Of a stretch of 64,000 bases of DNA, positions 4,040 through 64,000 are shown one piece after another. The stretch spans positions 432,151-496,150 of the forward strand of contig OY762251.1 of NCBI GenBank assembly GCA_963665395.2, in the 5' to 3' direction. Every line of letters begins with the position of its first letter. Positions within the stretch are counted from its first letter, which is position 1. Below the pieces are notes generated by a model. That model searched no databases and was not told the origin of the DNA. It saw nothing but the letters and a program-made list of their open reading frames with translations. The stretch comes from Dehalococcoidia bacterium. Lineage in GTDB: Bacteria > Chloroflexota > Dehalococcoidia > Lucifugimonadales > UBA3495. The position numbers were made by a program, and so were the translations under genes.

Positions 4040-6541
4040 CTACTCCGGCCCTGCGGGCGCCTCGTTGCCCGCCATGCGGTAGCCGACGCGGCGTTCGGCG
4101 ATGATGTACTTGGGGTTGCCGGCGTCGTCGTCGAGCTTGAGGCGCAACCGCCGCACGTGGGTGCGCAGGGCCGCCACGTTGCCGGACTTCCCGCCGCCCC
4201 AGACCCGACGCAGCAACTGGTCGTAGGTCAGCGTCCGGCCTCCACTGAGCGACAGCGCGCGCAGCAGGTCGTACTCCTTGGCGGTGACCGGCGCCGGACG
4301 GCCGGCAACGGAAACCAGCCTTATGGCGTAGTCGATGGTCAGGTCGCCCAAGACGTAGGGTTCCGGCGTCTCGAACGGGAAAGGCCCTCCCCGACGGCGC
4401 AGCGCCGCCCGCACCCGGGCCACCAGCTCCGCGGGGGCAAAAGGCTTGACGATGTAGTCGGAGGCTCCCATATCGAAGGCCCTGGCGATTATCTCCTCCT
4501 GGCCGTAGGCGGAGAGGAAGACCACCGGCACGTCGGCGACGGCGAATATATCCTGCATCAGCTCGATGCCGTCAGAGCCGGGCAGCATCATGTCCAACAG
4601 CGCCAGGACGGGCCGATTTTCCCCAATCAGGCGGAGGGCCTCTTCCGGGTCGGCGGCGACAATGGGGTCGTAGCCGGCGCCGGAAAGGGCTTGCCTGACG
4701 TACCGCAGCGTCTGCGGGTCGTCGTCAACCACCAGGATGGGGTCGCCGCCGCTAGCTCTCTCTGCCATTTCCTGCCGCCCGCTCGCGGCGAACGCGCGGG
4801 CCGCCAGCGTCGCCTCTTCCACCGCGGGCAGGGTGAAGCTGAACCGCGCGCCGAGGCTGGGCCCCTCGCTCTCGGCCCAGATGCGTCCCCCGTGGGCCGC
4901 CACAATGCCCCGGCTGATAGCCAGGCCCAGGCCGGTGTCGCCGGCTTGCTCCCTGGCCCCGGTCTCCGAGAACTTACGGAACAGGCGGGGCAGTTGCTCC
5001 GAAGGTATCCCCCGGCCTTCGTCAGCGACGAACATGACGACGTGGCCGCCCTCCCGAAACGCGCCCAGCTTGATTGTGGTTGCGGCGGGGGAGTGCCGGG
5101 CGGCGTTGGACAGCAGGTTGCCGATGACCTGGACGATGCGCCGGCGGTCCGCCATCACCGCGGGCAGGCGGGGCGCCAGGTCGATGTCGAGACTGCTCCG
5201 GCCGCCGCCGCTCAGGAAGATGTTCCGCGCCCGGTCCACCAGCAGGGCCACCTCGGTCGGTTCCGGGCTTACCGGCAGCGCGCCCGTCTCAATCCGCGCC
5301 ACGTCCAGCAGGTCGTCGATCAGTTCCCTCATGTTGTCGGACTGGTCCACGATGATGCGCTGGAACTGGCGCAACTCGGCCGGGGCCAGGTCCGACGCGG
5401 CGTCCAGCACGGCCGTGGCCGAGCCCCGGATGGACATCAGCGGGGAACGCAGTTCGTGGCTGACCATGCCCAGAAATTCGGCCCGCAGCCGCGCCGGCTC
5501 TTCCAGCGGCGTCAGGTCCTGGAGCGTGATGACGAAGGACTCGACGCCGCCGTCTGGCGACCGGATGGGCGTGGCGTTGAGCAGGACGGCCACGCTCCGC
5601 CCGTCGGGAACGCTGAGGACGATCTCCTCGGCTCGCACCGTTTCGCCGGCGCTCAGGGCCTCGGCGAAGGGCCATTCCCGCAGGGAGACCGCCCGCCCGT
5701 CGGCGCGGCGGACGGTCATGACGTCCAGCAACTCTTCGGGCCGCTGCGTCGGTTCCCGCAGGTCGTCCACGATCCGCGAGGCTTCCCGGTTGAACGACAG
5801 GGGCGCGCCGGTCAGGCCGTCGAAGACGACCACCCCCACGGGCGAGGTCTCCACCAGGGTCTCCAGGGCCGACCTGGCCTGACGTTCGTCCCGGTATTGC
5901 CGGGCGTTGGCAATGACCAGGGCGGCCTGAGAAGCGAACATCACCAGCGTCTCCTCGTCTTCACGGCTGAACATCTGGCCGGGCTCTCCGTTGCCCATGT
6001 GAATGTTGCCCACCCGGACGCCCCGGTGCCGGATGGGAACCGCCAGGAAGGAGCTCATCGGCACCGGCGGCCGGAACTCGGGCAGCCCCATGGCCCGGGC
6101 GTGGCTGGGAAAGTCGGACAGGCGCAGCGGTTCCGGGAACGAGTTGATGTAGTCAAACACCTCCCGGCCGCCCGGCATCGCCCAAAGTCGCTGCGCTTCC
6201 TCGGGCGTGAACCCGGAGGCCAGGAAGTCGTCAATCCGCCCCGCTGCGTCCAAAGTAGTCATCACGCCGTAGCGGGCGCCGGTCAAGGACCGGGCGCTGT
6301 CCAGCGCCTTCTGCAACACCGCGTCCAGCTCCAGGCTGTCGTTGATGCTCAGGCTGGCCTCGCTCAGCCGGGTCAGGCGGTCTTCCAGGGCCGCGATCCG
6401 CCGGTCGCGGTCGTCGTTCCGGGTCACGGTCTCATCTCCCGCTAAATCCAGCTTCGAGTGTACACCATCGGCGGCGCGTGACGGGAATGCCTTTGCCGAA
6501 GTCATTATAACGTAATCAAAAATTGCGGGTAATGTTTTCAA
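4040..6541 (-). CDS. Hybrid sensor histidine kinase fused to a full OmpR-type response regulator (GAF-PAS-HisKA-HATPase_c-REC-winged helix)
   Basis: H-box SHELRSPL; ATPase motifs DEGRGI and GLGLAI; receiver ILVVDDDP...LLDMMLPG...KPF; C-terminal TAKEYDLL...RVGYRM winged helix. The start is uncertain: ATG 6541, ATG 6505 or GTG 6424. Confidence 0.85.
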   Translation of the reverse strand: MKTLPAIFDYVIMTSAKAFPSRAADGVHSKLDLAGDETVTRNDDRDRRIAALEDRLTRLSEASLSINDSLELDAVLQKALDSARSLTGARYGVMTTLDAAGRIDDFLASGFTPEEAQRLWAMPGGREVFDYINSFPEPLRLSDFPSHARAMGLPEFRPPVPMSSFLAVPIRHRGVRVGNIHMGNGEPGQMFSREDEETLVMFASQAALVIANARQYRDERQARSALETLVETSPVGVVVFDGLTGAPLSFNREASRIVDDLREPTQRPEELLDVMTVRRADGRAVSLREWPFAEALSAGETVRAEEIVLSVPDGRSVAVLLNATPIRSPDGGVESFVITLQDLTPLEEPARLRAEFLGMVSHELRSPLMSIRGSATAVLDAASDLAPAELRQFQRIIVDQSDNMRELIDDLLDVARIETGALPVSPEPTEVALLVDRARNIFLSGGGRSSLDIDLAPRLPAVMADRRRIVQVIGNLLSNAARHSPAATTIKLGAFREGGHVVMFVADEGRGIPSEQLPRLFRKFSETGAREQAGDTGLGLAISRGIVAAHGGRIWAESEGPSLGARFSFTLPAVEEATLAARAFAASGRQEMAERASGGDPILVVDDDPQTLRYVRQALSGAGYDPIVAADPEEALRLIGENRPVLALLDMMLPGSDGIELMQDIFAVADVPVVFLSAYGQEEIIARAFDMGASDYIVKPFAPAELVARVRAALRRRGGPFPFETPEPYVLGDLTIDYAIRLVSVAGRPAPVTAKEYDLLRALSLSGGRTLTYDQLLRRVWGGGKSGNVAALRTHVRRLRLKLDDDAGNPKYIIAERRVGYRMAGNEAPAGPE
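6504..6532 (-). promoter_or_regulatory. Candidate sigma70-like promoter for the kinase gene (TTACCC, 17 nt, TATAAT on the minus strand)
   Basis: Plus-strand gggtaa at 6527..6532 and attata at 6504..6509, with a 17-nt spacer. This is only meaningful if the kinase starts at GTG 6424 (GGAG 8 nt upstream). Confidence 0.25.
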
Positions 6542-19081: not shown

Positions 19082-21910
19082 GTGTCCGCCAACGCCGACT
19101 ACGTGGAACTGCGCGCCCATTCCTGGTACTCCTTCGGCGCGGGGGCGTCCGCCACCGCCGAACTGGTGGAGCGGGCCGCCGGTCTGGACTGCCCGGCCCT
19201 GGGCCTGACCGACACATCTAATCTGTGCGGGGCGCTGGAGTTCAGCCAGCATTGCCTCGCCGCCGGACTGCATCCCATCCTCGGCGCGGACCTCATGGTG
19301 CGGGAGCCAGTTTGACTTGTTCACCAAAGCCACACTCAGGGATTACCGCGCCTTGCCATCATTTCGTCCCAACTCAGGGGTCGAATCTTGACATCGGGAA
19401 ACTCGTCCTCGACTTCCTTTATGAGAGCAGGGTTTTCGTCCGGCGAATAGAAGAACACATACCGGCGTTGAAAACGCGCCTTGCTCACCTTTTCGGCGTC
19501 TTTACGGAGCTTGTCATTGAACTTGAGATCTACTGTCGAGAACGCCTCCGCTGCCACCAGACCGCCCTGCTCACTTTCGATGTCATTTCCATCTCCTGTT
19601 ACTGGGGACAGGATAAGCGGACCGCAATCCTGCAACTTATCGAAAATGAAATCTGCCGCAGCAAACACCGCGAGAGCGTGGAAACTCTGGTTCATCTGCT
19701 CGGCAATAGTCAGTGAACCGTCTCGAAGCGGCCTATAACCGATACGCCGGTACCTCAAGTCGAACAGTGCTTTCATTCCTTCCTTCTCGGGATCGGTCAG
19801 TTTTTTGTAGGCGCGGTTGGCCTTCTTGATGACCTCGTCCCGGTACTCCTGTACATCCTTCCAGTCGCGGGCGGTCAATTTGTTCTTGTTATTCTTCCCT
19901 TTGTCCATATAATCATCACCTCGCGCAGAAATCATCCCGGAACTCCATCAACCCCTGCCCCTGCTTAGTCCGAATCCACCGAAGAGTTGAGGGTAACGGC
20001 GGGTTGAGCGGGTAAGAAACGGCTCCTCCGCTTCTGGGATAATGGTTTCTGAAACGGGAAATCGGCCCGAAACCAAGGGCACCCAATAGACACTACCACA
20101 CAACCAACTCCGCCGCATCCGAACCTCCTTCGGCAACCATCGTTTGGTCAACTATGATGGACTGATTCTTGCGGCCACCCTGGCCCGGCGCCTGGATCTG
20201 GCGTGTGCCGACCGCCCCGGCTGGCGGGATTTGCTGTCTCTGTCGGAGCAACTGGCCGGCTTTCCCAAGGGGCTGGCGCAGCACCCCGGCGGAATGCTGG
20301 TGTCCTCAACTCCCCTCACCGACCTGGCGCCGGTGCAGCCCTCGGCCATCGCCGGCCGCTACGTCGCTCATTGGGACAAGGACAGCGTGGACGACGCCGG
20401 CGTGCTGAAAATCGACCTGCTGGCCTTGGGCGCGCTGTCCCAGATGCAGCAGGCGGTAAGGCTGGTCAGGGACCGCACCGGCAAGGAACCCGACCTCAGT
20501 CGCATTGATTACCGCGATCCTGGCGTCTTTGACGACCTGGGCCGGGGCGACACCGTGGGCGTGTTCCAGGTGGAGTCCGCCGCCCAGATGCAAACCATCG
20601 TGCGGAGGCGGCCCCGGAACATCTACGACCTGGCATTGGAAGTGGCGGCCGTCCGGCCCGGCGTGGGCGCCAACGACGGCGTGGCCGAGTTCCTGCGCCG
20701 CCGGGAGGGGATGCCCTGGAACTACGATCATCCCCTGGAGCAGCCCGCATTGGAGCGCTCCCTGGGGGTAATCATGTTTCAGGATCAGGTGGTGCAGTTG
20801 GGCATGGACGTGGGCGGCTTCACCGCCGCCGAGGCCGACCGGATGCGCCGCACCTTCGGTCGCCGCAATGGGACGGCTATGGTGGCATCCTACCGCCGTA
20901 AGTCTCTGGCCGGCGCCGGAGAGCGCGGCGTTCCCGAACCCGTCGCCGAGACCGTCTTCGGCAAGTTCAATCCCCACTATATGTTTCCCGAAGGCCACGC
21001 CCTGGCCTTCGCCTTCACCGCCTACCAGATGGCCTGGCTGCGCCGGTATCACCCGCTGGAGTTCTTCGTCGCCCTGTTCAACGAGCAACCCATGGGGTTC
21101 TGGGACCTGGACACCCTCAAGCAGGACGCCCGCCGGCTGGGGCTGCGCGTCGCTCACCCCGACGTGAACCTGTCCGAACTGCTCTGCGCCGCCGAGGGTG
21201 AGGGAACCCTGCGCCTGGGGCTGACCTTCGTGAAAGGCGTGAACGCCCGGTTGGGCGAGACGCTGCTGCGAGCACGGGAGGCCGGACCGTTCCCCGATTT
21301 GGCGGATCTCCTGGCTCGCTCCGGTCTGCCCCGGGAGGTGCTGGAGAACCTGGTTCGGGCCGGAGCTGTGGACGGGTTGGGCGACTGTACCGCCCGCCGC
21401 GCCGCTTTGTGGCAGGTGGGCGATGGTTACATGTCCGGCGCGGGTCGGGGACAGTTGGCGCTGCCCGTGGCGGTGTCCGATGCGCCGGCGGGTTTGCGCG
21501 AGGCAGACCGGGCGGAGCGGATGCTGGACGAGTACGCCGTGCTGGGTCTGTGTCCCGACGGCCACGTGATGGAACTGGCGCGCCCGTCATTGGATCAAGA
21601 CGTGCTGACCAGCGATGGCTTGCTTGGCTCTGCCGACGGCGACACCGTGCGTGTTGCCGGCCGCGTGGTCAGGCGGCAACGACCGCTGGCCGCCGCGGTG
21701 TTCCTGACCCTGGAGGACGAATTCGGCCTGATACCCCTGGCGGTGTGGCCCGCTCAATGGGAGCGGCTCAAAGGCGCGCTGCGTCGCTCCTTGGTAGTGG
21801 TGGAAGGCACCGTCTCCCGCCGGGATGCCACGCTGAACGTCGCGGTGCGGCAGGCTTGGCCGCTGGCGGTGGACTTGGACGACCAGCGTGGCCGGCAGGA
21901 TTGGCGGTAG
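19082..21910 (+). pseudogene. dnaE2: Error-prone DNA polymerase III alpha (DnaE2) disrupted: PHP N-terminus (19082..19315) and C-terminal 588 codons (20144..21910) separated by foreign DNA; about 350-400 codons are missing
   Basis: N-terminal piece: YVELRAHSWYSFGAGASATAELVERAA..ALGLTDTSNLCGALEF. C-terminal piece: HPGGMLVSS.PL, VLKIDLLALGALS, VFQVESAAQM, MFQDQV. The combined length is about 660 aa against an expected 1050 or more. Confidence 0.8.
19336..19908 (-). CDS. Orphan protein (190 aa) on a lower-GC insert inside dnaE2
   Basis: ATG 19908 has GAGGTG 8 nt upstream. The N-terminus is K/E-rich (MDKGKNNKNKLTARDWKDVQEY). The segment is visibly AT-richer than its flanks. I recognise no family. 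Confidence 0.55.
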   Translation of the reverse strand: MDKGKNNKNKLTARDWKDVQEYRDEVIKKANRAYKKLTDPEKEGMKALFDLRYRRIGYRPLRDGSLTIAEQMNQSFHALAVFAAADFIFDKLQDCGPLILSPVTGDGNDIESEQGGLVAAEAFSTVDLKFNDKLRKDAEKVSKARFQRRYVFFYSPDENPALIKEVEDEFPDVKIRPLSWDEMMARRGNP

Positions 21911-58419: not shown

Positions 58420-59313
58420 ATGGTCAGCCCATCGACGCACAACACCGCTTTTTGGGAACGGATTGAGGCCGGCCTGGCCGAAACCGCCCCCAACGTCGCG
58501 TTGGAACGCGACTCGTTCTACTCCCAGCCGGAGTGGGACGTGTACCGGATGCGCTACGACACCACCGGCGGCCACCGGCTGTTCGCCTGGCTCTCCGTTC
58601 CCCACGGCGACGGCCCCTTTCCCGCCCTGGTGCGGATGCCCGACTACGCCAGCGTCCACGACATCATCTACACGCCATTGCGCCACCGGGCCATCGTGAT
58701 GAACGCCACTCACCGGGGCCAGCGCAACAGCGACGGCCTGGCGCGGGCCAGCTATCCCGGCCTGCTTACGGACGGTATCGAAAGCGCCGATTCTTACCTG
58801 CTGCTGGACGCATACGCCGACGCCCTGCGGGCCTTGGATGCTTTGGCCGCGCAGGATGCGGCGGAAATCGGCCCATTGGCCTTGACCGGCGCGGGTCTGG
58901 GCGCCAGCCTGGCCCTGTCGGTGGCGGCGCGCCGTGCCGGCGTATCCGCCGTTGCCGCGGACACGCCGTTGGCCCTGGGCCATCCGGCGGCCCTGGAACC
59001 CGGCCTGGGCTACCCGCTGGCCGAGTTGGGCGACTACCTCCGAATGCGCCCGGAACGCCGGGATGCGGTGGCGGAACTGCTGTCGGTGATCAACCCGCTG
59101 CACAGCGCGCCGGCCGTGTCCGCTCCGGTGCTGATGAGCGTGGGCCGGTTCGACCGGAGCCTTTGCCCGCTGGCCTTTGGCGAAGAACTGGCCGCCGCAT
59201 TGCCCAACTGCGACCTGCGAGTGTACGACGGCGCCGCGGAGGGCGGCGGACACGTTCATGCCCAGGCGCGCGGGGCCTGGTTGGCGGAACGGTTGGGCGT
59301 GTCGGTTTCTTGA
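58420..59313 (+). CDS. CE7/AXE1-like paralogue lacking the nucleophile serine (GAGLGA instead of GxSQGG)
   Basis: Same fold landmarks (HRGQ, FDRSLCP, GGGHVH), but LTGAGLGASLAL aligns to CCGSSQGGGLTL of the neighbour. Confidence 0.7.
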   Translation: MVSPSTHNTAFWERIEAGLAETAPNVALERDSFYSQPEWDVYRMRYDTTGGHRLFAWLSVPHGDGPFPALVRMPDYASVHDIIYTPLRHRAIVMNATHRGQRNSDGLARASYPGLLTDGIESADSYLLLDAYADALRALDALAAQDAAEIGPLALTGAGLGASLALSVAARRAGVSAVAADTPLALGHPAALEPGLGYPLAELGDYLRMRPERRDAVAELLSVINPLHSAPAVSAPVLMSVGRFDRSLCPLAFGEELAAALPNCDLRVYDGAAEGGGHVHAQARGAWLAERLGVSVS

Positions 59314-59339
59314 CCCTCCGATTCACCGCCGCCTATAAT
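59310..59339 (+). promoter_or_regulatory. Candidate sigma70-like promoter for pheS (TTGACC, 18 nt, TATAAT)
   Basis: ttgacc at 59310..59315 and tataat at 59334..59339, 43 nt upstream of the pheS ATG. Confidence 0.45.
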
Positions 59340-59381
59340 TTTCTGTCTCTAATATTCCCAACCCTTTTGGTGTCCTGACTC

Positions 59382-60431
59382 ATGCCGCAAATCCCATCGG
59401 TAGAATCGATTGACGCGCTCACCGGCAACGCGCTGAGCGAGCTTGAGGCCATTGCCAACGCCGAAAATGTGGAGCAATGGCGTGTCGCCTATCTGGGCCG
59501 GCGCGGAGAGCTAACTACGCTGCTCCGTTCAATCTCCACGCTAGAACCTGATGAGCGCCGGGCCGTCGGCTCGCGGGCCAACCAGGCCAAGAACACGCTG
59601 GAGGAAGCCCTGGCCCGCAGGACGCGAGAAATCGCCCAGGCGGTTTTGGCCTCCCGCGACGCCCTGGACGTCACCTTGCCGGGTCGCCCGGTGGTCACCG
59701 GAAGGCTTCACCCAACTACTCAGATTGTGCGGGAGATTTGCAGCGCGTTCATCGCCATGGGTTTCAGCGTGGTCGAAGGCCCGGAGGTGGAGCTGGACCA
59801 CTACAACTTTGAGATGCTGAACATCCCCGCCGGTCATCCGGCGCGGGATATGTGGAACTCTCTGTGGGTGGACTACGTCAACGAGGCAGGCCAACAGCCC
59901 ATGCTGCTGCGAACCCACACCTCGCCCATGCAGGCGCGAGTGATGGAAGCCCAGGACCCGCCGGTGCGTGTAGTCGTCCCCGGCAAGTGCTACCGCTACG
60001 AGGCCACCGACGCCACCCACGAGTGGCACTTCTACCAGATTGAGGGCTTGGCCGTGGCCGAGGGCATCACCTTCGCCGACCTGAAAGGCACCCTGTACGA
60101 ATTCGCCCGTCGCGTCTTCGGCGAAGACCGCCAGATCCGCTTTCGCTGCGACTACTTCCCCTTCGTCGAGCCGGGCGTGGATATGTCTATCTCCAACTTC
60201 GTTGATCCGGAAACTGGCCGCCGCCCCATCAACCGCGATGAAGACTGGATCGAGATCATGGGCGCCGGCATGGTCCACCCCCGCGTGCTGGAAGGCGTGG
60301 GCTACGACCCGCAACGCTACACCGGCTTCGCCTTCGGCATGGGCCCGGAACGCATCGGAATGCTCAAGTACGGCATCGACGACATCCGCCACTTCTACCG
60401 CAACGACGTGAGGTTTCTGCGGCAGTTCTAA
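59382..60431 (+). CDS. pheS: Phenylalanine--tRNA ligase alpha subunit
   Basis: 349 aa. HP...V..EI...F..MGF, GHPARDMWNS, LLRTHTSPMQ, FRCDYFPFVEPG, GMGPERI. Confidence 0.95.
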   Translation: MPQIPSVESIDALTGNALSELEAIANAENVEQWRVAYLGRRGELTTLLRSISTLEPDERRAVGSRANQAKNTLEEALARRTREIAQAVLASRDALDVTLPGRPVVTGRLHPTTQIVREICSAFIAMGFSVVEGPEVELDHYNFEMLNIPAGHPARDMWNSLWVDYVNEAGQQPMLLRTHTSPMQARVMEAQDPPVRVVVPGKCYRYEATDATHEWHFYQIEGLAVAEGITFADLKGTLYEFARRVFGEDRQIRFRCDYFPFVEPGVDMSISNFVDPETGRRPINRDEDWIEIMGAGMVHPRVLEGVGYDPQRYTGFAFGMGPERIGMLKYGIDDIRHFYRNDVRFLRQF

Positions 60432-60446
60432 CGCGCGGACGGTGGT

Positions 60447-60689
60447 ATGATTGAGTACAGTTCGCATGCGCGGGAGCGAATGGCGGAGCGCGAAGTTACG
60501 GAAAACCAGATCGAGCTGTGTCTAGCCGACCCTGACAGGATTGAAGCGGACGATTTGCCTGACCGCATTCGTTATTTGCGGTGTGTGCCAGGCCACAGCG
60601 TGGCGCTCAGAGTGGTGGTACGCATTGTGCAGCGCAACTTCGTCATCACCGTAACTCCCGATAAAAGATTCAGGTGTCCACCGACATGA
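60447..60689 (+). CDS. DUF4258-family protein (putative toxin of a DUF4258/DUF2283 pair)
   Basis: MIEYSSHARERMAEREVTENQIELCL....LRVVV...FVITV pattern; 80 aa. The segment has lower GC than pheS and pheT. Confidence 0.65.
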   Translation: MIEYSSHARERMAEREVTENQIELCLADPDRIEADDLPDRIRYLRCVPGHSVALRVVVRIVQRNFVITVTPDKRFRCPPT

Positions 60690-61405
60690 AAAGCACACCA
60701 AGAGTGCGATGGGATGATGAGGGCGCTTGGATCAAACTGGCGGACCTCCCATATGAAGCCAGCGAAGAGATCGCTGATGGCTTTATAGTTGATGCTAGTC
60801 CTGACCATCGGGTCATTGGATTGGAAATCCTCTGGTCTGAATCTCAACGCGCTGGCTATCCAGAGGAGCCGGTGTTGGCATTCGGTCTTTTCTGTGCTGC
60901 GCTAGCCGGTTTGAGTTGGCAGTATAATGATTACCTGCGCAACTCGGCAAGGCATCCCGAAGTTGGTATGTATCGCCGCTTGAAGTGGATGATTGATGCA
61001 ACCAACCTCGACTTGCGGGTATCGCAGGAAACACCGGCCGGCGCCGATGATGGAGCGTCCTTGTTGGACTTGGCGATACTCGATAAATCTGACCGACCCC
61101 TAATCTGCGCAGAAATTAAACGGGGGAAGTTTCAGAGGGACATCGTGCATGACTACACCGCGTTGTTGAGCAGAACCACGCTGCCGTCCTATCCGGAAGC
61201 CATTGGTATTGGTGTGTTCATCGACGAAACCGGGCAAGGTTACCGCAACAGGCCGGTCGAACCCGGCGTGTGGACGGATTGGCACAACACGGATGTCCAA
61301 GGCAGTAAGGTTTGGGCGCACAACACGATACTGCCGCCATTGGGATCCAATTATCCATGGCTTCCCAAAGAACTCAGAGACCCCATGTTCAAGGCTCAGA
61401 TCTGA
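60686..61405 (+). CDS. DUF2283-like N-terminal domain fused to a C-terminal PD-(D/E)XK-nuclease-like domain
   Basis: The ATG overlaps the DUF4258 stop (ATGA at 60686..60689). N-terminus VRWDDEGAWIKL...EEIADGFIVDASPDHRVIGLEIL. C-terminus LLDLAILDKSDRPLICAEIKRG (D...ExK). Confidence 0.6.
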   Translation: MKSTPRVRWDDEGAWIKLADLPYEASEEIADGFIVDASPDHRVIGLEILWSESQRAGYPEEPVLAFGLFCAALAGLSWQYNDYLRNSARHPEVGMYRRLKWMIDATNLDLRVSQETPAGADDGASLLDLAILDKSDRPLICAEIKRGKFQRDIVHDYTALLSRTTLPSYPEAIGIGVFIDETGQGYRNRPVEPGVWTDWHNTDVQGSKVWAHNTILPPLGSNYPWLPKELRDPMFKAQI

Positions 61406-61406
61406 A

Positions 61407-63845
61407 ATGCTAATCCCCTTCTCCTGGCTCTCCCAGTACGTTGACATCACCCTGCCCCCTGACGAGCTGGCCCACCGCCTCACCATGGGCGGCGTCGAGG
61501 TTGGCGACGTAATCACCCGCGGCGGTTGGGACGGCTGCGTCGTCGGCTACGTCCGCGCCACTCGCTCCCACCCCAACGCGGACACCCTGACGCTGTGCGA
61601 AGTGGACCCTGGCGACGGGCCACCGATAGAAGTGGTCTGCGGCGCGCCCAACGTGGCCGCCGGCCAGAAGATCTGTTTCGCCCGCCCCGGCGTTACCCTG
61701 CTGAATATGCACACCGGCCGCCGTGAGGAACTCAAACCGGCTCGCATTCGGGGCGTGGTGTCCGAGGGCATGATCTGCTCCGAGGCCGAGCTGGAAATCA
61801 GCGACGAGCACGAGGGTATCATAGTGCTTCCCGACGACGCGGTGGTCGGCGCGCCGCTGGATGAGGTGCTGGGCGACACCTTCCTGGAACTGGAGCTCAC
61901 GCCCAACCGGGGCGACTGCCAGTCCATTCTCGGCGTGGCCCGGGAAATCGGCGCCCTCACCGGCCAGTCCGTGCGCGTGCCCGACGTGTCTTATGCTGAA
62001 GCCGGTCCGCCCGTGGCCACGCTGGCACGGGTCACCATTGCCGACCCGGACCTGTGCCACCGCTACACCGCCTCGGTGATCACCGGCATCACCATCGGCC
62101 CGTCACCCCAATGGATGCAGGACCGCCTCATTCGCGCCGGCCTGCGTCCCATCAACAACGTGGTGGACGTCACCAACTACGTGATGCTGGAGTTCAACCA
62201 GCCGCTCCACGCCTTCGATCTGGATACCGTCACCGACCGCCACGTAATCGTCCGCCGCGCCGCCGACGGGGAGAAGTTCACCACCCTGGACGGCTTGGAG
62301 CGCACGCTGACCGGCGACAATCTGCTCATCGCCGACCCGGCCCAGGCCATCGGCATCGGCGGCGTCATGGGCGGCGCCAACAGCGAGATAACGCCGGCCA
62401 CCACCAATATGCTCCTGGAATCCGCCACCTTCCATCCGCTGAACAACCGCCGTACCTCCACCGACTTGAACCTGCGCACCGAGGCCAGCCTGCGCTTCGA
62501 GAAGGGCTTGCGCCCCGAACTCGCCCCCATCGCCTTGCGACGTGCCACCCGGCTCATCCTCGAAACCGCCGGCGGTGCGGCTGCCGCCGGCATCATCGAC
62601 GTATTCCCCGAAGGCGACGCGCCGGTTGCGCCGGTGCCGCTGACCGTGGGACGCTTGCGCCAGCTGCTGGGGATGGACCTCGACATCGTCCGCGCCGAGA
62701 CGGTGCTGGGCAGTCTGGGCATCGTCACCCGCCGCGCCGGGCCGGATCGCCTGGAAGCTGACCCGCCCTACTGGCGCAGCGACATCGCCATCGAAGAGGA
62801 CCTCATCGAAGAAGTGGTCCGCATCATCGGTTACGACGAAGTGCCTACCACCATGCTGTCCTCGGCCATCCCTTACCATCAGCCCAACCCCATGACTACC
62901 CTGAAGGACGCCCTGCGCGACGCCCTGGCCTCCGCCGGGATGCAGGAAACCATCAGCTACCCGTTGGTCAGCCCGGACGATTTGGCCCGCCTGGGCCCGG
63001 GGCCGGATGGCGCTGACGAGAACGGTGGGGCCCTGCTCCGCGTCGCCAACCCCATGTCCACCGAGCAGGACGTGTTGCGTCCCACCCTGGCCGCCAGTGT
63101 ATTGAGCACATTGGCCTACAACCGGGGGCACAATGACGGTGGTTTCCGCCTGTTCGAGCTGGGACGGGCCTTCATTCCCCAGAGCGCCGGCCTGCCCCAG
63201 GAAGTTGAACTCGCCGCCGGCGTGATGTCAGGGCCGCGCTACGACGCCAACTGGCTGAACGCCTCCGAGCCGCTAGACTTTTACGACCTGTCTGGAACAT
63301 TGGCCGCGGCTCTGGGCCGCATGGGCGTCACCGTCGCCTTTGAGGCGGACGACCGGCCCTTGTTTCATCCCGGGCGATGCGCCCGCGTTGCCATTGGCTC
63401 CGGTAGTGGCGCCGGCATCGGCGTGGTGGGCGAGCTCCATCCCGGCGTTTGCGAAGCTTTTGACCTGGCCGGCGACCCGGTGATCTATTTTGAACTGCGC
63501 CTGGCCGATATGCTGGCCGCCGTCTCCGGCGACTCCGCGTCCGAAAACCGTTTCCAGTCCCTTTCCCGGTTCCCGGCCGCCAACCGCGATCTGGCCCTGG
63601 TGACGCCGGCGGATGTGCCGTCGGCCCAGGTGCAGCGACTTATCGAGCGGGTGCGCCTGGTGGAACGCGCCGAGCTGTTCGATGTGTATGTGGGAGAGAA
63701 CGTGCCGGAGGGAACCCGCTCACTGGCCTTCCGCATCCACTTCCGGGCCGCCGACCGCACGCTGACCGCCGAGGACGTGAACCGGGCGGTCAACGGCCTG
63801 ACCCGCGCGTTGGAACGGGAAGTCGGCGCAACGGTGCGCGCATGA
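61407..63845 (+). CDS. pheT: Phenylalanine--tRNA ligase beta subunit
   Basis: The start was moved to ATG 61407 (MLIPFSWLSQYVD, the canonical PheT N-terminus), 1 nt after the upstream stop. tRNA-binding, B3/4, B5 and FDX-ACB regions are recognisable. 812 aa. Confidence 0.93.
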   Translation: MLIPFSWLSQYVDITLPPDELAHRLTMGGVEVGDVITRGGWDGCVVGYVRATRSHPNADTLTLCEVDPGDGPPIEVVCGAPNVAAGQKICFARPGVTLLNMHTGRREELKPARIRGVVSEGMICSEAELEISDEHEGIIVLPDDAVVGAPLDEVLGDTFLELELTPNRGDCQSILGVAREIGALTGQSVRVPDVSYAEAGPPVATLARVTIADPDLCHRYTASVITGITIGPSPQWMQDRLIRAGLRPINNVVDVTNYVMLEFNQPLHAFDLDTVTDRHVIVRRAADGEKFTTLDGLERTLTGDNLLIADPAQAIGIGGVMGGANSEITPATTNMLLESATFHPLNNRRTSTDLNLRTEASLRFEKGLRPELAPIALRRATRLILETAGGAAAAGIIDVFPEGDAPVAPVPLTVGRLRQLLGMDLDIVRAETVLGSLGIVTRRAGPDRLEADPPYWRSDIAIEEDLIEEVVRIIGYDEVPTTMLSSAIPYHQPNPMTTLKDALRDALASAGMQETISYPLVSPDDLARLGPGPDGADENGGALLRVANPMSTEQDVLRPTLAASVLSTLAYNRGHNDGGFRLFELGRAFIPQSAGLPQEVELAAGVMSGPRYDANWLNASEPLDFYDLSGTLAAALGRMGVTVAFEADDRPLFHPGRCARVAIGSGSGAGIGVVGELHPGVCEAFDLAGDPVIYFELRLADMLAAVSGDSASENRFQSLSRFPAANRDLALVTPADVPSAQVQRLIERVRLVERAELFDVYVGENVPEGTRSLAFRIHFRAADRTLTAEDVNRAVNGLTRALEREVGATVRA

Positions 63846-63861
63846 GCAAGGAGCATCCGAC

Positions 63862-64000
63862 ATGGAAACGGAAAACCAATTTGAACTCCGCAAGGACAAG
63901 CTGATTGAGGCCGTAATCTACTTGAGCGAACGCTCCGCCGATGACCCCAACTTTGGTGTCATCAAGCTGGTCCACCTGCTCTACTACGCCGACTGTGCCG
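63862..64000 (+). CDS. Panacea (DUF4065, SocA-like antitoxin) domain protein, N-terminal part; runs off the window
   Basis: AAGGAG 8 nt upstream of ATG 63862. METENQFELRKDKLIEAVIYLSERSADDPNFGVIKLVHLLYYADCA shows the K(L)..LLYYAD hallmark. It is not in the ORF track because there is no stop. Confidence 0.55.
   Translation, partial: METENQFELRKDKLIEAVIYLSERSADDPNFGVIKLVHLLYYADCA

Follow-up and report, generated by a model that had tools for sequence, protein, structure and literature searches.

Within a 64,000-nucleotide stretch of DNA from a Dehalococcoidia bacterium (assembly GCA_963665395.2, contig OY762251.1, positions 432,151 to 496,150; hereafter the window), the genes encoding the two subunits of phenylalanyl-tRNA synthetase (PheRS), pheS and pheT, are separated by two small genes that we call ORF1 and ORF2. 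We consider it probable that these two genes form a toxin-first cassette resembling type II toxin-antitoxin modules and that the antitoxin has a new architecture. The cassette occupies a slot inside the pheS–pheT operon whose content is exchanged by recombination. ORF1 belongs to the DUF4258 family of putative toxins. ORF2, the putative antitoxin, joins a DUF2283-like N-terminal domain to a C-terminal domain for which a restriction-endonuclease-like, or PD-(D/E)XK-like, fold is predicted. The toxin and antitoxin functions implied by these names are predictions made from the sequence.

The cassette and its place in the operon

The interval between pheS and pheT is exactly 975 nt long (60432-61406), and both genes within it are oriented with pheST (Table 1). 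They are packed as tightly as a preliminary description of this DNA had reported: a 15-nt spacer lies between pheS and ORF1, ORF1 and ORF2 overlap in an ATGA, and a single nucleotide precedes the start of pheT, whose product begins MLIPFSWLSQYV and has the complete set of PheT Pfam domains. The lower GC content remarked on in the same description also stood up, at 0.544 for the interval versus 0.644 for the window as a whole, and only 0.17% of 975-nt windows are equally low. The GC content of third codon positions (GC3) is 0.62 in ORF1 and 0.59 in ORF2, as against 0.81 in pheS and 0.84 in pheT. An automatic open reading frame call that started ORF2 at a GTG at 60674 was discarded as an artefact of the procedure; the ATG at 60686 is favoured by homologues and by the geometry of the coupling.

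A consensus scan of positions 59000-64000 returned a single promoter-like site on the plus strand, some 40 nt away from the ATG of pheS. In the pheS–pheT interval the same scan found no plus-strand terminator-like site, and no plus-strand promoter belonging to the cassette itself, with the proviso that the promoter types of this phylum may differ from the consensus. An autoregulated promoter and operator of its own, as a type II toxin-antitoxin module would have, was thus not detected for the cassette by consensus, and the spacers on its two sides measure 15 nt and 1 nt. A transcript driven from the promoter-like site upstream of pheS would read through the cassette, and translation would be coupled from pheS to ORF1, from ORF1 to ORF2 and from ORF2 to pheT by way of the three tight junctions described above. 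We also considered a T-box or other leader coupling the operon to phenylalanine starvation and rejected it, since no Rfam family was found anywhere in the window and the promoter-like site is so close to the pheS ATG.

Domain content of ORF1 and ORF2

ORF1 matches Pfam DUF4258 (PF14076) over positions 1-69 of the 71-position profile with 40.2 bits (gathering cut-off 25), and also gives a weak match to PBECR2. PF14076 is carried by all of the 70-odd relatives of ORF1, and the residues M1-I-E-Y-S, H7, E10, R15, C25, R45-C46, VITV, D72, F75 and C77 are invariant among ORF1 alleles. The colicin-like branch of BECR toxins includes colicins D and E5, which cleave the anticodon loops of tRNAs. By its family membership ORF1 would be an RNase that arrests translation; a 2026 preprint assigns DUF4258 to this colicin-like branch, with an overlap with Ntox49 (bioRxiv 10.64898/2026.08.28.747851). 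Neither ORF1 nor ORF2 found a match in NCBIfam, PADLOC or PHROGs or in a plasmid tblastn search. No PADLOC-DB v2 defence model matched either protein at E <= 1, and phmmer searches of PDB sequences returned nothing for both.

The DUF2283-type domain that the preliminary description, having correctly named ORF1 a DUF4258 protein, placed at the start of ORF2 was recovered at the level of the family. Sixteen of 21 family members match DUF2283 at E <= 0.01, and in hhalign the ORF2 family profile aligned with the stand-alone DUF2283 proteins that partner DUF4258 genes in outgroups, with E values of 3e-6 and 4e-5. In the two outgroup cases examined (P0078 and P0094, a small sample) a Pfam DUF2283 gene lies directly downstream of the DUF4258 gene, toxin first, with a 4-nt overlap in one and an 8-nt gap in the other; restriction genes lie beside one pair and a phage portal gene beside the other. 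Because stand-alone DUF2283 proteins partner two unrelated DUF4258 genes, DUF4258 followed by DUF2283 appears to be a recurrent module. The cassette in the window resembles this module in its toxin family (above the Pfam cut-off), in placing the toxin first, in its overlapping or near-overlapping genes and in the homology of the ORF2 N-domain to the stand-alone partners. It differs in the length of the toxin's partner, which is 239 aa here as against 68-129 aa, in a 185-aa restriction-endonuclease-like domain unique to ORF2, and in lying within an essential operon with no promoter of its own. The likeness is to toxin-antitoxin modules of a predicted type, DUF4258 having been assigned to either RelE/ParE or colicin-like BECR toxins.

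Both this pairing and the domain fusion suggest that ORF2 would neutralise the toxin through its DUF2283-like N-domain. The best internal support for such a role comes from a relative, locus L004, in which a second antitoxin-like module was grafted onto ORF2 when the toxin was swapped (see below). In a literature search on DUF2283 the sole substantive match concerns a family of transcriptional activators of integrative and conjugative elements (PMC4755241), which has no bearing on antitoxin function.

The remainder of ORF2 had been singled out in the preliminary description for a hydrophobic helix and a D...ExK nuclease-like motif; both are present, and structure prediction places the motif within a PD-(D/E)XK fold. 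AlphaFold2 (AF2) modelled the full-length protein with a predicted local distance difference test score (pLDDT) of 83 and a predicted template-modelling score (pTM) of 0.87, and the C-domain alone with scores of 85 and 0.83. In the model two to three N-terminal helices are followed by an alpha-beta-beta-beta-alpha-beta core (helix 91-106, strands 111-113, 129-132 and 138-147, helix 151-168 and strand 173-180; core pLDDT ~90) and a beta-hairpin, and the core, with its mixed four-stranded sheet, has the topology that characterises PD-(D/E)XK proteins. D128 falls at the start of beta2 and E143-x-K145 on beta3, the D and the E being 15 residues apart. The best PDB match in Foldseek was 3IJM, a 'restriction endonuclease-like fold' (E 0.01, probability 0.99, TM-score 0.36-0.45). 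The PDB and BFVD match lists consist mostly of PD-(D/E)XK nucleases; neighbours include the DrdV nuclease domain, Cas4, ACE1, YaeQ, influenza PA endonuclease, DUF820, MGME1 and MunI, as well as phage nucleases of the Cas4 or YqaJ type. Sub-threshold Pfam matches among ORF2 members point in the same direction (HSDR_N_2 in 6 of 24, best E 9e-4; YhcG_C, E 2.7e-3; PDDEXK_3, E 0.28). We regard the predicted fold as soundly assigned at the level of the PD-(D/E)XK superfamily, with no described family established.

With members of that superfamily such as 3IJM, DrdV, Cas4, HSDR_N_2 and YhcG_C, the C-domain shares its predicted core topology and the placement of D and ExK. It differs from them in that no specific family gives it a significant match in sequence or in structure, in its two extra N-terminal helices and C-terminal beta-hairpin, in the family motifs FIDETG, WAHxxIIPP and YPWLP, and in the absence of one triad residue from about a quarter of ORF2 members. 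Against PDB sequence profiles the C-domain found no significant match; the top one aligned 'LDLAILD..PLICAEIKRGKF' to the N-domain of translation initiation factor 3 (IF3; E 0.55), a resemblance that we attribute to chance because a BLASTP comparison with the local IF3 reached no better than E 21. The gene infC sits a few kb downstream in relatives.

A census of 34 ORF2 family sequences found D128 in 31, D133 in 33, an acidic residue at position 143 in 30 and K145 in 29, and the triad is intact even in the most distant member (P0059). Since the triad is lesioned in about one quarter of members, nuclease activity is plausible but not obligatory; judging from these sequences, catalysis is probably kept in most ORF2 alleles and yet dispensable. 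The C-domain may be a dimerising, nucleic-acid-binding module that would still be a Mg-dependent nuclease in most alleles, including that of the window, and it would give ORF2 a second, toxin-independent role, either as a sensor or effector acting against invading DNA or in operator binding. In the hydrophobic helix the sequence LAFG(L/I)F is kept family-wide. The hydrophobic stretch (residues ~62-78) has only ~14-16 apolar residues, and in the AF2 model it is a buried helix of the globular core, with pLDDT >90; on this model a membrane role is neither favoured nor dismissed.

Two further ORF2 relatives, P0050 (L015, 5001-5726) and P0056, are near-identical over their N-terminal ~75 aa and C-terminal ~45 aa and very different in the region between (triad ExK versus D-L-Q plus an insertion). 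This comparison suggests that recombination breakpoints may also fall inside ORF2.

Distribution, exchange and reuse of the slot

A word-indexed search of 5.8 billion proteins recovered only 21 relatives of ORF2, each at least 60% identical, and an exhaustive comparison of the C-domain profile with 1.84 billion cluster representatives gave 11 matches, nine of them real. The other two, P0057 (2143 aa) and P0058 (1835 aa), were rejected as relatives: both are repeat proteins of low complexity that owe their scores to a sum over 9-11 stretches. Exact-sequence look-ups of P0001 and P0071 returned no record. Every placeable chromosomal copy of ORF2 lies between pheS and pheT in a single Dehalococcoidia clade, and the order pheS-DUF4258-ORF2-pheT was found on at least 17 distinct contigs, among them complete long-read chromosomes of Dehalococcoidia metagenome-assembled genomes. 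The architecture of DUF2283 plus a PD-(D/E)XK-like domain is, as had been surmised from the sequence of the window, undescribed, and it is essentially unique to this clade. A DUF4258 gene lies upstream of ORF2 everywhere but in L004, where it has been replaced; the L018 contig ends immediately upstream of ORF2.

The sole clear exception to this siting is an ORF2 homologue (P0055, 33% identical) at 5001-5702 of L016, a phage-like metagenome contig of 31.5 kb from the same sample as L015. It has D-I-L in place of ExK and no DUF4258 neighbour, and its surroundings include a RusA-like resolvase, two PAPS-reductase-like genes and several DNA methyltransferases. P0055 may be a phage-borne antitoxin decoy.

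Both cassette genes are under purifying selection and are therefore real genes. The ratio of nonsynonymous to synonymous divergence (dN/dS) is 0.08-0.25 overall (0.08-0.24 for ORF2 and 0.10-0.25 for ORF1), the one comparison above 0.25 being that of the toxin in L012 versus L015 (0.32). Their history is decoupled from that of their flanks. In L012, L015 and L103 pheS and pheT are 83-93% identical to those of the window whereas ORF2 is only 38-48% identical, and in L018 the corresponding values are 92% for pheT and 34% for ORF2. L002 and L011 belong to the same species, and their flanks show 99-100% nucleotide identity over kilobases on each side of a cassette in which identity is 66-81%. Here identity falls off gradually across the final ~350 nt of pheS and returns abruptly to the level of the flanks within ~50 nt of the pheT start, and synonymous divergence (dS) is 0.06-0.12 in the flanks versus 1.0-1.2 in the cassette, a 10-15-fold difference. 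The pattern recurs between L008 and L004, and the reverse case, a cassette less diverged than its flanks, is seen between the window and L006. We rejected diversifying selection as the source of the divergence because dS is raised as well and dN/dS stays at or below 0.25 save in the one toxin comparison. The history of the cassette is thus one of allelic replacement by homologous recombination, not of accelerated evolution.

The compositional difference is equally general: across all relatives GC3 is 0.53-0.68 in the cassette and 0.79-0.84 in the flanks, a gap of ~0.2. The preliminary description had allowed that relatives might carry the pair as conserved core members of the operon, with uniform composition. 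What we found instead is a composition unlike that of the host, cassette and flank histories that are decoupled, and relatives in which the pair is absent or replaced. Nor is the pair a one-off insertion: it holds the junction throughout the Dehalococcoidia clade as very divergent, recombination-exchanged alleles, and other cassettes take its place in relatives. Carrying no mobility genes, the cassette spreads, and is replaced, by homologous recombination through the highly conserved ends of pheS and pheT. Transfer dependent on flank homology only would explain why the ORF2 family is almost confined to the pheS–pheT locus, why the composition of the cassette never ameliorates, and why unrelated toxin-antitoxin and restriction cassettes occur at the same site in relatives.

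To compare the junction among relatives, we took 80 metagenome loci found by means of the N-terminus of pheT. In distant relatives the gap between pheS and pheT is -1 to ~200 nt, and larger gaps are confined to loci whose pheT shares 52% identity or more with that of the window. A survey of this kind had been proposed in the preliminary description, and it revealed a variable slot with HicAB, Gp49-like and Mrr-like contents, to which L015, reached separately through an ORF2 relative, adds a PIN pair (Table 1). At least five cassette types use the slot, all of them co-oriented with pheST and tightly packed. L020, L026, L028 and L034 lack the pair or have something else in its place, and more distant relatives lack it. 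In L004 the partner fused to ORF2 is a 68-aa module at its N-terminus; this module shares 57% identity (E 9e-23) with the partner that stands alone in L103. The duplicated 5' fragment of pheT in L103 and L104 is the direct footprint of a cassette arriving with a piece of flank. In L008 the DUF4258 gene (5762-6004) has an in-frame TGA at the codon for the invariant Cys46 and ORF2 is intact; L008 carries either a toxin-null allele or a sequencing error. The expectation that loss of the cassette would be hard to select, raised by its position inside an essential operon, is therefore right only in part, given the nonsense codon in L008, the replaced toxin in L004 and the decayed cassette in L020.

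Core-genome 'defence hotspots' hold variable defence or toxin-antitoxin cassettes between conserved core genes. The pheS–pheT slot resembles them in its conflict cassettes at a fixed site, conserved flanks, turnover by recombination and presence/absence polymorphism among close relatives. It differs from them in lying inside an operon, between two subunit genes of an essential enzyme, and in cassettes that are co-oriented and translationally close-packed and show no integrase or repeat signature. A full-text search of the literature turned up no description of toxin-antitoxin cassettes in this position. Panacea-domain proteins are an example of multidomain, promiscuous antitoxins. ORF2 shares with the multidomain antitoxins and fused modules described by Gerdes (2025, PMC11980606) a constant domain combined with exchangeable toxin-matching parts, as L004 illustrates; it differs in that its constant domain is nuclease-like and not HTH (helix-turn-helix) or Panacea, and in its small set of partners within one clade.

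Table 1. Features of the window around the cassette, and contents of the pheS–pheT junction in relatives
Feature	Position	Strand	Remarks
Promoter-like site TTGACC-18-TATAAT upstream of pheS	59310-59339	+	11/12 consensus matches; consensus match only
pheS (PheRS alpha subunit)	59382-60431	+	Stop TAA; tRNA-synt_2d 1.9e-95 and Phe_tRNA-synt_N; left flank and homology arm of the slot
ORF1 (80 aa, DUF4258 putative toxin)	60447-60689	+	ATG 60447; TGA 60687-60689
ORF2 (239 aa, modular putative antitoxin)	60686-61405	+	ATG 60686-60688; TGA 61403-61405
DUF2283-like beta-rich N-domain, residues ~6-51	60701-60838	+	Five beta strands (AF2); presumed toxin-binding module
Restriction-endonuclease-like (PD-(D/E)XK-like) C-domain, residues ~55-231	60848-61378	+	AF2, Foldseek and sub-threshold Pfam
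Hydrophobic helix, residues 60-78 (PVLAFGLFCAALAGLSW)	60863-60919	+	First core helix of the C-domain (AF2)
Motif LLD128LAILD133...CAE143IK145RG (LLDLAILDKSDRPLICAEIKRG), residues 126-147	61061-61126	+	Predicted strands beta2 and beta3
pheT (PheRS beta subunit)	61407-63845	+	ATG 61407; five PheT Pfam domains; right flank and homology arm
L004 junction			Gp49-like toxin (Pfam 24.8 bits) instead of DUF4258; the toxin's partner fused in frame to ORF2
L015 junction (via ORF2 relative P0050)			DUF4258/ORF2, then a second pair ending in a PIN toxin
L020 junction			Decayed Gp49-like toxin and 77-aa partner
L026 junction			HicB and HicA
L028 junction			Mrr_cat endonuclease fills the gap
L034 junction			HicB and HicA, plus a TENA-like gene
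L103, L104 junction			pheS-DUF4258-ORF2-[first 82 codons of pheT]-Gp49-like-partner-pheT
L105 junction			ORF2 allele as in L103, without the second cassette

Some observations concern the wider neighbourhood of the slot. In cassette-free loci whose pheT is 57-65% identical to that of the window (L021-L029 and L045), pheS and pheT are separated by spacers of 100-200 nt, compared with typically -1 to 30 nt in more distant bacteria; such spacers could be what is left of vanished cassettes, or may hold a regulatory element. Directly after pheT in the window, a plus-strand gene starting METENQFELRKDKLIEAVIYLSERSADDPNFGVIKLVHLLYYADCA (63862-64000) runs off the end. It matches by position the post-pheT genes of relatives that carry the antitoxin domain Pfam SocA_Panacea (L004 9279-10134, L015 8972-10726 and L103 8156-8722). 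Each SocA_Panacea gene in L004 and L015 is followed by a gene of ~100 aa, and L015 has two such pairs with a 47-aa duplicate of the pheT 3' end between them. From the post-pheT Panacea genes and this duplicate, the 3' flank of pheT looks like a second site of cassette accretion.

Elsewhere in the window there is only one other comparably GC-poor stretch (0.54), an insert at ~19132-20345 within 19082-21910. It appears to split a DnaE-like polymerase gene into an N-terminal piece (19082-19315), which reads like a PHP domain, and the remainder (20144-21910). The insert carries a minus-strand ORF of 199 aa (19336-19935).

Alternative readings and biological meaning

Several points weigh against reading the pair as a toxin-antitoxin cassette. 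DUF4258 is listed as a BECR-fold toxin family with its target given as unknown and without experimental reference (PMC11980606), and PADLOC, PHROGs and NCBIfam are silent on both proteins. The window's ORF2 falls marginally short of the Pfam cut-off for DUF2283 (22.3 bits, cut-off 23) and matched no curated PD-(D/E)XK family in Pfam, and Foldseek gave no match for its C-domain at E <= 0.001, with TM-scores of 0.36-0.47. A lesion at D128, E143 or K145 in 9 of the 34 ORF2 members (~26%) implies that catalysis is not the sole function maintained. D180, W199 and H212, the residues present in all 34, fall outside the LLD...IKRG stretch and the classical triad. The co-transcription and translational coupling with pheST that we infer are drawn from gene arrangement and consensus signals. 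Finally, ORF2 is intact beside a truncated toxin in L008 and a replaced one in L004, and occurs without DUF4258 in L016; retention of this kind fits an orphan antitoxin or an anti-toxin decoy, and fits equally a protein whose main work is not neutralisation.

That ORF2 is retained upon toxin loss would also suit an anti-phage abortive-infection system in which the PD-(D/E)XK domain of ORF2 is the primary effector or sensor and the DUF4258 RNase a second effector, set free once ORF2 is engaged or degraded. Such a scheme overlaps with the toxin-antitoxin reading and differs chiefly in which protein does the work. Divergent alleles that are maintained and exchanged suit the frequency-dependent selection of conflict systems, an Mrr-like restriction endonuclease occupies the same slot in L028, Panacea-type modules lie just 3' of pheT, and the toxin-less ORF2 homologue with its degenerate motif on a phage-like contig is what would be expected of a phage decoy. 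However, no PADLOC model matches, the triad is lesioned in roughly a quarter of members and the host lineage is uncultured, and we judge the scheme unlikely. The same lesions, which number nine in 34 and include E143 changed to A, K or V within the close clade, bear on a further proposal, namely that the C-domain is an inactivated endonuclease fold that contributes nothing but dimerisation and DNA binding to a conventional antitoxin-repressor, with D...ExK as relics. Type II antitoxins normally join a neutralising domain to a DNA-binding domain. Pfam moreover contains inactive restriction-endonuclease domains from conflict systems, one of which, NA-iREase1, matched the L028 protein. But the triad is kept in 25 of 34 members, down to ~32% identity and including the most distant one, and there is no cassette-specific promoter-like site to repress, which makes this proposal improbable in our view.

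A third possibility, that both genes are lineage-specific accessory factors of PheRS or tRNA-Phe metabolism (for example, a tRNA-directed RNase and its regulator), we find very hard to credit. It would account for a family found almost exclusively between pheS and pheT, with an ORF2–pheT spacer of at most 6 nt or an overlap at every locus, and it agrees with the placement of DUF4258 in the colicin-like BECR branch (bioRxiv 10.64898/2026.08.28.747851). It sits poorly with the foreign composition of the cassette and its decoupling from the flanks, with the unrelated toxins (HicA, Gp49-like and PIN) and the Mrr-like gene that share the slot, and with close relatives in which the toxin is lacking or lost (L004, L008 and L020) and more distant ones in which pheS and pheT are adjacent. 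The fidelity to the locus is more simply explained by mobility that depends on flank homology only.

The toxin-antitoxin reading, which we prefer, can be extended, though tentatively and with more doubt than conviction. ORF2 may be a bifunctional antitoxin-nuclease, in which the DUF2283 domain restrains the BECR RNase and the PD-(D/E)XK domain detects or cleaves nucleic acid of invaders, and the junction may be an exchange site for conflict cassettes, somewhat integron-like in its operation, with the conserved ends of two essential, translationally coupled genes as the only 'attachment sites'. If this is true, cassettes could move with no recombinase at all and would be difficult to remove cleanly.

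How abundant chromosomal toxin-antitoxin modules persist and spread without mobile elements is debated. Here a cassette without mobility genes, in an essential operon and probably expressed from a housekeeping promoter, is swapped among relatives, and five or more types of cassette have made use of its slot; the locus offers a concrete, testable model for the spread and retention of selfish or defence modules driven by homology arms. The new, previously unannotated family that combines DUF2283 with a divergent restriction-endonuclease-like domain may link toxin neutralisation to the sensing or cleavage of nucleic acids, and its natural series of alleles (toxin-null, toxin-swapped and phage-borne) lends itself to dissecting that link between neutralisation and nuclease.

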